A stretch of DNA of 64,000 bases from an uncultured Candidatus Rokubacteria bacterium (GTDB lineage: Bacteria; Methylomirabilota; Methylomirabilia; Rokubacteriales; CSP1-6). Location of the stretch: contig CAVYTA010000002.1 of the NCBI GenBank assembly GCA_963771355.1, positions 66,481-130,480 on the forward strand, given 5' to 3'. The first letter of the stretch is position 1. Every line of letters starts with the position of its first letter. The position numbers and the translations under genes were made by a program. Below the pieces are notes generated by a model that did no database searches, was not told where the DNA came from, and was given only the letters and a program-made list of their open reading frames with translations. Shown piece by piece: positions 42,102 to 46,121 of the stretch.

Positions 42102-42940
42102 TGCCGACCGCGAAGCTGGGCGACGTCGAGCTCTACTACGAGATCACCGGCGAGGGTACCCCGCTGGTGTGGAGCCACGAGTTCGGCGGCGACCACCGCT
42201 CGTGGGAGCCGCAGGTGCGCTACTTCTCGCGGCGCTACCAGGTGGTGACCTACAACCACCGCGGCTACCCGCCCTCGAGCGTCCCCAAGGGCGCCGCCGG
42301 CTATTCGCAGGACCACCTGGTGCAAGATCTCCACCGGCTGCTCGAGCACCTGGGGCTCGGGCCCGTGCATCTGGGCGGCTGCTCCATGGGCGCCAACGTG
42401 GCGCGCGACTTCGCGCTGGCGCATCCGGAGAAGCTGCGCAGCCTCATCATGGTGGGCGCCGGCGCGGGCGCGGTCAACCGCGAGCAGTTCCTCGCCGGCC
42501 AGGCGGCCATCGCGGACGGGCTCGAGCGCGAAGGGCAGGCCCACCGCGTGCGCGGCTTCGAGACGCTCGCCACCCGCACGTCCTTCAAGGCCAAGGATCC
42601 GCGCGGCTTCGCCGAGTTCGCGCGCCAGGCCGGCGAGCACGACGCGCAGGCCTGCGCCCACCTCGCCCGCGAGGTGATGTCCAAGCGGAAGACGGTGCCG
42701 GAGGTGGCGGCGGGGCTCCGGGCGCTCCGCGTTCCCACCCTCATCATGGTCGGCGACCTGGACGCGCCGTGCGTGGAGCCCTCCCTCATGATGCGGGGAT
42801 TGATCCCGCACGCGGGCCTGGTGGTCTTCCCCGCCTGCGGCCACACGCCGAACATCGAGGAGCCCGGGCTCTTCAATCTCCACGTCACCGAGTTCCTCGC
42901 CTCCGTGGAGCGCGGGCGCTGGGCGGGCTGGTCGGCCTGA
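42101..42940 (+). CDS. Alpha/beta hydrolase
   Basis: HEFGGD, GCSMG, VGDLD, GHTPN. Confidence 0.9.
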   Translation: MPTAKLGDVELYYEITGEGTPLVWSHEFGGDHRSWEPQVRYFSRRYQVVTYNHRGYPPSSVPKGAAGYSQDHLVQDLHRLLEHLGLGPVHLGGCSMGANVARDFALAHPEKLRSLIMVGAGAGAVNREQFLAGQAAIADGLEREGQAHRVRGFETLATRTSFKAKDPRGFAEFARQAGEHDAQACAHLAREVMSKRKTVPEVAAGLRALRVPTLIMVGDLDAPCVEPSLMMRGLIPHAGLVVFPACGHTPNIEEPGLFNLHVTEFLASVERGRWAGWSA

Positions 42941-43034
42941 GATGACGCCGTCCCCGGCGGGCGTGCGCGTGGGCGCTCCGCGCCGGCCCGCCCGCGGCGC
43001 CCGGCCATCGGAGGCCGTGATAGGGTAAAGGTCC

Positions 43035-44195
43035 ATGCTCAACGCGACCCGCGACAAGATCCTGCCTACCACCGTCACCGGCTCCTATCCGCGCCCCGCC
43101 TGGTTCACCGAGGAGCTGCACGGCCGCTCCTTCAAGGACGCGCTGGGCCACGCCCGCTTTCGCGAGCAGTATCTCGACGCGGTGTCCTGCCTCCTGGCCG
43201 AGCAGCAGCGCGCGGGGCTCGACATCCTCACCGACGGCGACTCGCGCTTCGATCTCACCGTGGGCGGCAAGTCGTGGTTCTACTACCCGATCGAGCGGCT
43301 GCGCGGCATCACCGGGCATGCCGACGCCTCCACCGCGGGCGACTGGAAGGTGCTGCGTCCCGGCCGCATCCTCTACGAGGTGATGGAGGCGTATCAACCC
43401 TCCATCGTGGGAGAAAAGCTCGCCGCCGGCGATCTCGAGTACGCCGCGCTGTACAAGGCCGCGCAGCGCCTTGCCGACCGGCCGGTGAAGTTCGGCGCCA
43501 TCAGCGCCCAGACTCTCGTGAAGATGCTGGTGAACAAGCACTACGCCTCCGAGCGCGAGCTGATCATGGACGTGGCCGACATCTTCAACGTCCAGCTCCG
43601 CGAGGTGGCGGCCGCGGGTTGCGGCGTCATTCAGGTCGAAGAACCGCGCCATCACATCTCGGCGGCGGCGGGCGCGGCCTCGGACAAGGACCTGCAGTTC
43701 TTCACCGACGCGGTGAACCGGGAGATCAAGGGCGTGGAGACCGAGGTGTGGCTGCACACCTGCTGGGGGAATCCCAATCAGCAGCCGCTGCACTGGGAGC
43801 GTCCCTCCTACGAGCGCGCCCTGCCCTATCTGCTCCAGACCGACGCCGACGCCATCGGGCTCGAGTGCGCGAGCACCAATGGCCGCGACCTGCCGCTGCT
43901 GGGGCGCTACCGGACCGACAAGAAAATCGTGATCGGCGTGGTGAGCCATACCGTCACCGCGGTGGAGCCGCCCGAGGTGGTGGCGGGCCTCATCCGCAAG
44001 GCGCTGGAGTACGTGCCGGTGGAGCGGCTCATTCTCTCGACCGACTGCGGCTTCGGCCGCGAGGGCCTCTCGCGCCGCATCGCCTTCTACAAGAGCGTGG
44101 CCATCAATCTGGGCGCCAATATCGTGCGGCGCGAGCTCAAGCTGCCCGAGGTGCCGATCCCGGCCGCCGACGCGCGCTTCACCTTCGCCGGCTAG
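43035..44195 (+). CDS. Cobalamin-independent methionine synthase II family protein (single domain)
   Basis: TGSYPRP, TDGD, HTCWGN, TDCGF Zn ligands. Confidence 0.88.
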   Translation: MLNATRDKILPTTVTGSYPRPAWFTEELHGRSFKDALGHARFREQYLDAVSCLLAEQQRAGLDILTDGDSRFDLTVGGKSWFYYPIERLRGITGHADASTAGDWKVLRPGRILYEVMEAYQPSIVGEKLAAGDLEYAALYKAAQRLADRPVKFGAISAQTLVKMLVNKHYASERELIMDVADIFNVQLREVAAAGCGVIQVEEPRHHISAAAGAASDKDLQFFTDAVNREIKGVETEVWLHTCWGNPNQQPLHWERPSYERALPYLLQTDADAIGLECASTNGRDLPLLGRYRTDKKIVIGVVSHTVTAVEPPEVVAGLIRKALEYVPVERLILSTDCGFGREGLSRRIAFYKSVAINLGANIVRRELKLPEVPIPAADARFTFAG

Positions 44196-44215
44196 GTTCG
44201 CCGGACATTCAGGAT

Positions 44216-44674
44216 ATGACGTCGCGACGCGGATTTCTCCGGAGCGCCCTCACGCTGGCCGGCGTCACCCTCATCGGCGGCCGCGCGATCGCCGCTCCGC
44301 GGCCGCCCGTCACCGTCCACCGATCGCCGACCTGAGGGTGCTGCACCGCGTGGGTCGTGCACCTGCGCAGCCACGGGTTCCCGGTGACGGAGCGCAACGA
44401 GACCGACCTCGCCCCGGTCAAGCGGCGGCTCGGCGTGCCCACCGCGCTGGAGTCCTGCCATACCGCGCTGATCGAGGGCTACGTGCTCGAGGGCCACGTG
44501 GCCGCCGACCTGATCGACCGTCTCCTCCGCGAGCGGCCGAAGATCGTGGGGCTCGCGGTGCCCGGCATGCCCGTCGGCTCGCCCGGCATGGAGTCGCCCG
44601 GCATGAAGCCCGAGCGCTATCAGGTGCTGACGTTCGACGGTAACGGGCGCACCGGCGTCTTCGCCACGCGCTGA
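44216..44674 (+). CDS. DUF411 family Tat-exported metal/redox protein, probable selenoprotein (TGA at 44333-44335 = Sec40)
   Basis: MTSRRGFL Tat signal; HRSPT*GCCTAW matches the family SPxCGCC motif; frame continues with SCHTA, EGHV, GLAVPGMP.GSPGME. Confidence 0.82.
44336..44374 (+). promoter_or_regulatory. Candidate bacterial SECIS hairpin
   Basis: Stem gcgtgggt (44348-55)/acctgcgc (44361-68), loop cgtgc starting 20 nt after UGA with G at loop position 2. Confidence 0.55.
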
Positions 44675-44689
44675 AGCGGCACGCGTCCC

Positions 44690-44759
44690 CTACCGAAGGA
44701 TCTGATCCGCTCGCTCCAGGATCGCCGGCGAAGCGTCAGTCCGATGGCCTTCCCCTTGA
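44690..44759 (-). pseudogene. 3' remnant of an ABC_sub_bind substrate-binding protein gene
   Basis: Reads KAIGLTL-PAILERADQILR* with one indel; resembles the C-terminus of 23650..24672 (ALGLTIPPSLLLRANDVIQ*). Confidence 0.6.
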
Positions 44760-46121
44760 TCACGTCGCGGTCACCGCGGAGGGTTGCCCGGCCCGCGCCC
44801 GCATCAGCCACGAGTACAAGCCAACCAGGAGCACCGCGGCCAGCGCGAGCGCGATCGACTGCATCAGCCACATCCCGGTGATGCCCCAGGGAGGCCCCGC
44901 CGCTCCGCGAAGGGCGAGCTGGTAGCCGCCGAACACTCCCACCCCCCAGAGGGTGACGGCGTAGATCACCGTGGGCGGGACCACGATCTTGTGCGCGCGC
45001 AGCACGAAGCCGGCCACCGTCTGGATGGCGTCGAAGAAGTGGAACGCGGCCAGATACGGCACCAGGGTCAGGGCGATCGCCGCCACCGCGGGGTCGCTGG
45101 TATAGAGCCCCACGATCGCGTGGCGCAGCGTCCAGACCACGAGCACCGTCGTCACCGCGACGGCGGCGCCGATGCGCATCCCGGTGGCCGCGGTCTTCCG
45201 CGCCCGCGCGGGCTCGCCCGCCCCGATCGCCTGGGCGGTGAGCGTCGCGGTGGCGACGGAGAGCGAGAGCGGGAGCATGAAGCAAAGCGCGGCGAGGTTG
45301 GCCACGATCTGATGCCCGCCCATCACGGTGGTTCCCAGCCGCGCCGCCAGCAGGGTGATGACGGTGAAGGACGTCGCCTCGAGCGTGTACGAGAGGCTCA
45401 TGGGGATACCGAGGTGGAGCAGCTCGCGCAGGATGGACCACCGCGGCCAGGCCCAGTGGATGTCGAAGCGCCGGTAGAAGGGGTTGAAGCGCATGTATGC
45501 GAGCCCCGCGAGGAAGAGCGCCCAGAACACGATGGCCGAGGCCAGCGCGCCCCCGAGCGCGCCCAGGCGGGGCAGCCCGAGCTGGCCGAAGATCAGGGCG
45601 TAGCTCAGCAGCACCTTGAGCACGAGGCCCCCGAGCTGCATCGTCATCACGACATGCGGGCGCGACACCGCGGCGTTGAGCGAGTAGATGACGCGGAACA
45701 TGAGCGAGGCGGGCAAGGCCAGGCTCAGGATTCTCAGGTAACGCGCCACCAGCGGCTGGACCTCGGGCGGTGAGTCGAGCCAGGGCAGCCAGACCTCGGG
45801 GAAGACGAGCACGAGGCAGCCCCCCGCCGAGAGCAGGAGCGCCATCCAGAGGCCCTGGCCATAGCTGGCCCCGATGGCGGCGAGACGACCCGCGCCAAAA
45901 TGCTGCCCGATGATGGGATTGAGCGCGCTCACCGCGCCCATGAGGCCGACGAACACCGTGGAGTAGACGCTCAGCCCCAGCCCCAGCGTGGCGAGATCGA
46001 CGGCGGAGGCGTGCCCGGTGAGCACGGTGTCCACCACCGCGAACAGCATCACCGCGACCTGGCCGACGAGGAGAGCCCGCGCCTGGGCAACGATGCCCCG
46101 TGTGATCGACGGCCCGGCCAT
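44760..46121 (-). CDS. MATE family efflux transporter (NorM-like)
   Basis: VDTVLTGH, IFGQLGLPRLG, HQIV, FFDAIQ; about 12 TM helices. Confidence 0.9.
   Translation of the reverse strand: MAGPSITRGIVAQARALLVGQVAVMLFAVVDTVLTGHASAVDLATLGLGLSVYSTVFVGLMGAVSALNPIIGQHFGAGRLAAIGASYGQGLWMALLLSAGGCLVLVFPEVWLPWLDSPPEVQPLVARYLRILSLALPASLMFRVIYSLNAAVSRPHVVMTMQLGGLVLKVLLSYALIFGQLGLPRLGALGGALASAIVFWALFLAGLAYMRFNPFYRRFDIHWAWPRWSILRELLHLGIPMSLSYTLEATSFTVITLLAARLGTTVMGGHQIVANLAALCFMLPLSLSVATATLTAQAIGAGEPARARKTAATGMRIGAAVAVTTVLVVWTLRHAIVGLYTSDPAVAAIALTLVPYLAAFHFFDAIQTVAGFVLRAHKIVVPPTVIYAVTLWGVGVFGGYQLALRGAAGPPWGITGMWLMQSIALALAAVLLVGLYSWLMRARAGQPSAVTAT

Follow-up and report, generated by a model that had tools for sequence, protein, structure and literature searches.

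A CopG (DUF411) gene with a conserved in-frame TGA at its metal motif, a likely selenoprotein of uncultured Rokubacteria

The window, by which we mean the whole stretch of 64,000 nucleotides analysed here (contig CAVYTA010000002.1 of the uncultured Candidatus Rokubacteria assembly GCA_963771355.1), carries on its plus strand a gene that opens with the ATG at 44216, runs for 39 codons to an in-frame TGA (44333-35, codon 40) and continues in the same frame for 112 codons to the stop TGA at 44672-44674. The read-through product of 44216-44674 has 152 residues with U at position 40, just as in the original prediction, which had read the locus from its letters as a hidden selenoprotein. The features referred to below are the following.

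44216..44674, plus strand: CopG/DUF411 gene of 152 codons with one TGA predicted to be recoded (PF04214, 6WIS match, model fold)
44216..44293, plus strand: likely Tat signal peptide, with SRRGFL, a hydrophobic stretch and an A-I-A cleavage site (by eye)
44333..44335, plus strand: TGA read in frame, standing where the CxCC motif has its first Cys and predicted to encode selenocysteine 40 (homologue alignment, run contigs)
44333..44344, plus strand: U-G-C-C motif with U40, C42 and C43 (sequence and alignment)
44348..44368, plus strand: predicted bacterial SECIS upper stem-loop (homologue comparison; consensus model in section 5 of PMC13188914)
44456..44497, plus strand: C81-H82 and H94, invariant family residues (alignment)
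44567..44590, plus strand: M118-x6-M125 Met pair, reported copper ligands in CopG/CutG (alignment; available part of PMC8456105)
43035..44195, plus strand: MetE-like gene whose end lies 20 nt 5′ of the ATG, not conserved as a neighbour and given for context
44760..46055, minus strand: convergent MATE transporter gene, context only

Contigs from four of four sequencing runs, belonging to four studies, cover 44333-35 with no other letter listed, so that the read check proposed with the prediction returned TGA throughout and neither TGC nor TGT; three of these runs are listed as probable DNA and one as RNA, and the best DNA run is possibly the source sample itself. One RNA-library contig covers both the MetE-like gene and the CopG gene, but since contigs cannot show transcription or a shared transcript, nothing is drawn from it. 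The AGGA that had been noted 5′ of the ATG is present (44211-14), although at only 1 nt from the ATG it lies below the normal Shine-Dalgarno spacing and is unlikely to be a ribosome-binding site. No promoter-like site and no plus-strand terminator-like site were found in 42800-45000. Gene callers were expected to mis-annotate such a gene, and among 121 stored CopG/DUF411 sequences of the protein collection (120 matches and the query) 79 are full Cys forms, 40 begin past the motif, on its 3′ side, and 2 differ otherwise, with U in none of them.

The read-through product matched Pfam DUF411 (PF04214) with an E-value of 2.8e-25 and 88.2 bits against a curated cut-off of 27, which secures the family that had been proposed for it, and the NCBIfam models returned 0 families at E <= 1. 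It is the only DUF411-like copy in the source genome, and its closest named relatives belong to Rokubacteria/Methylomirabilota. The sole sequence match to a solved structure was PDB 6WIS/6WJE (E 5.9e-35), whose title is copper resistance protein CopG. An AlphaFold model built on a 60-row alignment reached a pLDDT of 91.8, with low values over residues 1-20, and Foldseek placed it on 6WIS/6WJE with E ~1e-15, 1.4-1.6 Å and a TM score of 0.90-0.92 by target length; thioredoxins and glutaredoxins came next, with E above 0.01. Positions 40, 42, 43, 81, 82, 94, 118 and 125 are invariant over the 60 aligned rows, of which row 1 is the window protein with U read as C and the other 59 are Cys forms, and C42, C81, H82, H94, M118 and M125 are retained in 30/30 loci from the window's class, TGA forms included. 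Presumably C81, H82 and H94 are copper ligands as well.

In the available parts of PMC7558416 and PMC8456105, CopG is described as a periplasmic protein with a thioredoxin-like domain that holds a tetranuclear copper cluster through CxCC and two Met residues; roles as a Cu(I)/Cu(II) oxidoreductase and as a donor of copper have been put forward for it. In R. capsulatus, according to the same part of PMC8456105, CutO activity is independent of the CutG Cys motif, a point that counts against the copper reading proposed below. The reported Cys and Met copper-ligand positions are kept in the window protein, in agreement with what is available of PMC8456105. The "metal-binding or redox protein" of the original prediction can thus be narrowed to the copper-cluster family CopG (6WIS/6WJE), for which sequence and modelled fold suggest a copper role. 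As for the motif, the TGA does sit on the first Cys, whereas the family motif itself, which had been named CxxC or SPxCGCC, is CxCC and appears here as U-G-C-C.

Matches with one internal TGA were found in 104 genomes of three lineages, counting the search of the window's class and three follow-up searches. In that class 48/201 genomes gave a match, and 40 of the 48 had a match holding one internal TGA; two of these 40 genomes, G065 and G029, are unpublished; G065 contributes one locus to the 23 TGA loci that follow, and the conclusions stand without either genome. Among the best 30 class loci, codon 40 is TGA in 23 and TGC in 7. A partial scan of species genomes (9/64 parts) showed TGA at this codon in 9/80 loci, namely one Rokubacteria, six Chloroflexota and two deltaproteobacterial records, one of the nine possibly coming from a genome already in the class count. 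Because a phylum-wide Chloroflexota sample was sparse, with a match in only 2/301 genomes, Chloroflexota were searched by order, and TGA-bearing genomes made up 36/44 and 20/26 of the matching genomes in two orders (121 searched each); in the class of a deltaproteobacterial record they made up 8/14 (151 searched). When the loci of the follow-up searches were opened, TGA stood at codon 40 in 9/19, 18/25 and 19/25. In all opened loci the remainder have TGC or TGT there, and every stop within the aligned stretch is the TGA at codon 40. A metagenome scan, whose loci were chosen for TGA by the search pattern itself, yielded 120 loci, of which 106 are DUF411 homologues; the whole collection is estimated to hold ~1500 matching stretches. 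Homologues with TGA aligned to Cys, which had been named as a check, are therefore many.

The hairpin described in the original prediction is likewise present: a stem of 8 pairs (44348-55 with 44361-68) closes the loop CGUGC (44356-60), which has GU at loop positions 2-3 and starts 20 nt after the UGA, and the structure reaches -12.0 kcal/mol when constrained (own script). It falls within the bacterial SECIS model given in section 5 of PMC13188914, which has a loop of 3-9 nt with an early G, 16-37 nt past the UGA. Folding energy was no better than that of shuffled sequences (z 0.29 to 1.59 over 4 spans), and in the window gene a rival pairing beats the CGUGC-loop form by 2.3 kcal/mol, so support for the SECIS comes from the comparison of homologues and stability gives none. 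The loose published model was tried as evidence and set aside, since 7/7 class Cys loci and 35/71 distant Cys loci also pass it.

A stricter rule, written after the hairpin had been seen, called for at least 7 contiguous pairs and, 16-25 nt past the codon, a loop of 3-6 nt in which a G[G/U] starts at the first or second position. It was satisfied by 22/23 class TGA loci versus 1/7 class Cys loci, and by 3/9 distant TGA loci versus 1/71 distant Cys loci, against a background in the source genome of 8/1070 true TGA stops and 64/5182 internal Cys codons. When only distinct sequences are counted, a G[G/U] loop occurs in 28/30 TGA forms versus 1/85 Cys forms; since kin are not independent, none of these hairpin counts is to be read as a test statistic. 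Pairs 15-31 and 16-30 persist in 29 of the 30 distinct TGA sequences each and pair 18-28 in all 30, and at one pair G-C (26) gives way to C-G (3), at another U-G (24) to U-A (5). The residue encoded by the loop is mostly Gly or Val in TGA forms and mostly Glu, Asp or Ala in Cys forms. One TGC copy (L042), from genome G075, which carries a TGA copy as well, has a full SECIS-like hairpin with 7 pairs and a GGG loop and is possibly a recent Sec-to-Cys reversion.

The source genome, which is 99.8% complete, has selA, selB and selD over cut-off together with a tRNA-Sec, which settles the question raised about selA/selB/selC/selD in favour of a full machinery; selC, selA and selB are grouped on contig C7, and the only tRNA with a UCA anticodon reported by ARAGORN is the tRNA-Sec. 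We found selB in 32/37 class TGA genomes (a tally that left out G000, G065 and G029), in 8/9 distant TGA genomes and in 9/26 distant Cys genomes; it is present in 6/6 of the Chloroflexota TGA genomes tested. No selB match was found in 5/37 class and 1/9 other TGA genomes, all incomplete assemblies: of these six, three yielded only a selD that itself contains a TGA, one yielded selA and tRNA-Sec, a fifth, 78% complete, a partial selD, and the last no Sec gene at all. A clustered selCAB locus was likely lost from these assemblies. In one relative a second tRNA-Sec-like match (G183:C21:394561-394654) lies above the Rfam cut-off.

When the whole source genome was scanned under a relaxed version of the strict rule, which asked for a TGA flanked by coding signal and accompanied by a hairpin of at least 6 pairs, 34 sites came up, the CopG gene among them. 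Of the 33 others, 28 fall in catalogued selenoprotein families (Prx/AhpC, AhpD/CMD, DsbA, TlpA, UGSC, OsmC, FdhA, MoeB, ArsC-like, rhodanese and AhpF-N), one is a CoA-transferase subunit and four resemble ordinary stops or noise. The source genome (L323-L355) is thus rich in likely selenoprotein genes, with at least 28 further genes of this TGA-recoded kind, among them four UGSC and six AhpD/CMD paralogues. Taking the TGA, the hairpin and the machinery together, UGA-40 of the window gene is almost certainly decoded as selenocysteine (Sec), and the gene is very probably a real and functional selenoprotein gene, a Sec variant of the known CopG family.

In Chloroflexota the strict hairpin rule is satisfied by 2/37 TGA loci. 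Their codon for Cys43 is UGU in 36/37 TGA forms versus 7/13 Cys forms, and Gly44 occurs in 36/37 TGA forms versus 3/13 Cys forms. In the Chloroflexota Sec-CopG genes (L133, L154-L202) UGU-GGY-G is fixed at +7 to +13 past the UGA. The fixed UGU and Gly44 hint at another RNA signal in these sequences, possibly an atypical SECIS. A lipobox-like motif is found in 14/18 and 11/19 of the Chloroflexota TGA forms of the two orders.

The Sec/Cys site was masked for a quick tree of 110 rows, which leaves 56/106 inner branches open; it united the Chloroflexota forms in one group (97) and the Rokubacteria and deltaproteobacterial forms in another (94). One clade of Chloroflexota and Rokubacteria/deltaproteobacterial forms was not rejected by an AU test that used 46 of these rows (p-AU 0.378), and since a single origin is not rejected, we make no claim of independent origins. 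Within a branch at 95 of the same tree, L033 and L046, both of them Cys forms, sit among Sec forms, which suggests Sec-to-Cys reversion.

Regarding export, a loose twin-arginine pattern occurs in 23/23 class TGA loci and tatC is found in the source genome. A scan of 114 hand-picked flanking ORFs showed no conservation of the neighbours. The MetE-like gene (43035-44195) is a single-domain gene (Meth_synt_2), and the same arrangement occurs in 1/3 same-genus relatives. Linkage to copper-resistance genes, frequent though not obligatory in the CopG family, is not seen for the window gene, which is flanked by the MetE-like and MATE genes, with the single CopA on another contig; a search of the source genome turned up no multicopper oxidase domain. 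Copper genes lie beside 1/23 class and 1/9 distant Sec forms (both the loci that supplied the queries) and 6/106 short metagenome Sec loci, or 2/25 of the metagenome Sec loci of at least 4 kb, and beside 5/7 class Cys forms (one clade) and 21/71 distant Cys forms, the locus lengths being unequal between the sets. This rarity of copper genes beside Sec forms weakens a copper role but does not exclude it. Among the metagenome Sec loci, five adjoin a multicopper oxidase or a CopA-like ATPase. The clearest copper context of any Sec form is seen at L054:131-4390, where Sec-CopG is clustered with a multicopper oxidase and SCO1/SenC. At L027 and L051, Sec-CopG adjoins MerB-like genes, and at L027 an RND transporter also.

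We propose that the product is an exported Sec-CopG in which a selenolate takes part in the copper cluster and which serves Cu(I)/Cu(II) redox buffering, a copper function that is probable given the family, its fold and its kept residues. SelB with Sec-tRNA would bind the G[G/U]-loop hairpin 20 nt downstream, so that UGA-40 is read as Sec; the folded protein would very likely be exported by Tat, with the signal cut after A26. The mature part is predicted to take the CopG thioredoxin-like fold, which would bring U40, C42, C43, M118 and M125, and probably C81, H82 and H94, to the metal site. There the selenolate would probably take the place of one thiolate, bridging or terminal, in the multinuclear copper cluster. 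Section 8 of PMC13188914 gives a pKa of 5.2 for Sec versus 8.3 for Cys and states that Sec resists irreversible oxidation; with its low pKa and its resistance to over-oxidation, the selenolate would keep the site charged with metal and able to do redox chemistry under the oxidising conditions of the periplasm. Since the Sec copies mostly stand alone, their role is likely housekeeping copper redox buffering or hand-off, not that of an inducible resistance operon.

The main competing explanation accepts that Sec is incorporated and holds that the Sec form has drifted away from copper to become a periplasmic selenol/thiol oxidoreductase working through U40-x-x-C43. This would agree with the thioredoxins and glutaredoxins that are the next-best fold matches, with Sec copies that are mostly orphan genes far from copper genes, and with the many Prx, DsbA, TlpA and AhpD selenoproteins of the source genome. 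However, C42, C81, H82, H94, M118 and M125 are kept in the 30 class loci and a plain disulfide enzyme needs none of them; the retention of the whole His/Met/Cys set in TGA forms argues against a copper-free UxxC oxidoreductase, as do the Sec copy at L054 with its multicopper oxidase and SCO1 and the five metagenome Sec loci beside copper genes, and we consider this explanation unlikely. It could also be that the Sec form binds or detoxifies another soft metal (Hg, Ag or Au) through the affinity of the selenolate, since MerB-like genes lie beside 2/23 class TGA loci (L027, which supplied the query, and L051) and, in the available parts of PMC13188914, several selenoproteins are tied to mercury and arsenic resistance. 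These are two loci only, though, no conserved mer context was seen, and the Met/His/Cys set matches the CopG copper site, which makes a role with another metal quite improbable.

Two further explanations dispense with Sec. That UGA encodes another residue (Cys or Trp), by way of an altered genetic code or suppressor tRNA, might be entertained for the Chloroflexota TGA forms, whose decoding route is less clear for want of the canonical hairpin, but the only tRNA with a UCA anticodon is tRNA-Sec, TGA ends 1070 long genes in the source genome, the codon aligns to Cys and never to Trp, and selB was present in all six of the Chloroflexota TGA genomes tested; such decoding is very hard to credit. 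Even less probable is that we are looking at a nonsense pseudogene or a mistake of assembly, or that translation yields just the 105-residue C-terminal ORF that starts with the GTG at 44357. Gene callers do annotate this short ORF, as the 40/121 stored proteins that begin past the motif illustrate, but it would be without signal and without the CxCC motif. Given a TGA codon kept in more than 100 genomes, opened loci that show no further stop where they align, a signal peptide and a downstream frame that are both kept, and independent runs that agree, the pseudogene or assembly-error explanation can be regarded as already refuted by conservation at the sequence level.

Returning to the copper-cluster reading, the closest known proteins are P. 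aeruginosa CopG (6WIS/6WJE; Hausrath et al. 2020, as reported in the available parts of PMC7558416 and PMC8456105) and R. capsulatus CutG. The window protein shares with them ~50% identity, the same predicted fold, CxCC and M-x6-M in register and a predicted export signal. It differs in that its first motif residue is TGA-encoded and likely Sec, with an internal SECIS that alters the residue after W-V in Sec forms, mostly to Gly or Val, and in that the Sec form is usually an orphan gene and not part of a cop, cus or cueO cluster. The bacterial UxxC selenoproteins of thioredoxin fold (Trx, Grx, DsbA-like, TlpA-like and ArsC-like; Table 1 of PMC13188914) have the same Sec-first UxxC, a thioredoxin-like fold and a SECIS loop 16-37 nt downstream with G[G/U], but CopG is another family, whose extra Cys, His and Met residues serve a metal cluster. 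The CopZ-family (2Fe-2S)-binding protein, SO_0444 Cu/Zn efflux transporter and E1-E2 ATPase with UxxC, which the catalogue has as predicted copper-related selenoproteins, likewise have Sec in a metal-handling protein; they stand there under other domain identifiers, and none is listed as an exported multinuclear copper-cluster protein. The catalogued enzymes in which Sec meets a metal, as given in section 7 of PMC13188914, bind Mo/W or Ni.

Whether the Sec form had already been catalogued was a question left by the original prediction: it is absent from the 119 families in Table 1 of the 2026 review PMC13188914, and a term search did not find DUF411 or CopG in the main texts of PMC13326102, PMC12013277 and PMC13745706. 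Our literature search found no paper on selenocysteine-containing DUF411/CopG and none on Rokubacteria selenoproteins; subscription journals and the BSepDB family table were outside its scope, and an earlier mention is possible.

With the Sec form the bacterial selenoproteome would gain a family that gene callers truncate and that is frequent among uncultured lineages abundant in soil and sediment. Should the CopG chemistry apply, a copper cluster would have Sec among its ligands in nature; sites with Cu-Se bonding are known to us only from engineered proteins such as Sec-azurin. We would give roughly even chances to the fuller proposal that Sec-CopG is a widespread natural selenium-ligated copper-cluster protein and the usual CopG form in Rokubacteriales and two Chloroflexota orders, using a Cu-Se bond for extracytoplasmic Cu(I)/Cu(II) chemistry, with decoding in Chloroflexota by a second, non-canonical SECIS near the UGA. 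The natural Sec/Cys pairs of 60-70% identity, including the apparent reversions, could serve as a direct test of the benefit of selenium at a metal site, and the Chloroflexota forms as a test case for atypical SECIS elements.

The CoA-transferase-fold subunit (PF01144) met in the genome-wide scan (L341, G000:C7:248274-249224) has its in-frame TGA within an H-[S/T]-U-P motif and is absent from Table 1 of PMC13188914. Its relatives are L356-L367, of which L363 is from the unpublished genome G029, and TGA stands at the same codon in 12/12 opened loci, each with a G[G/U]-loop hairpin.
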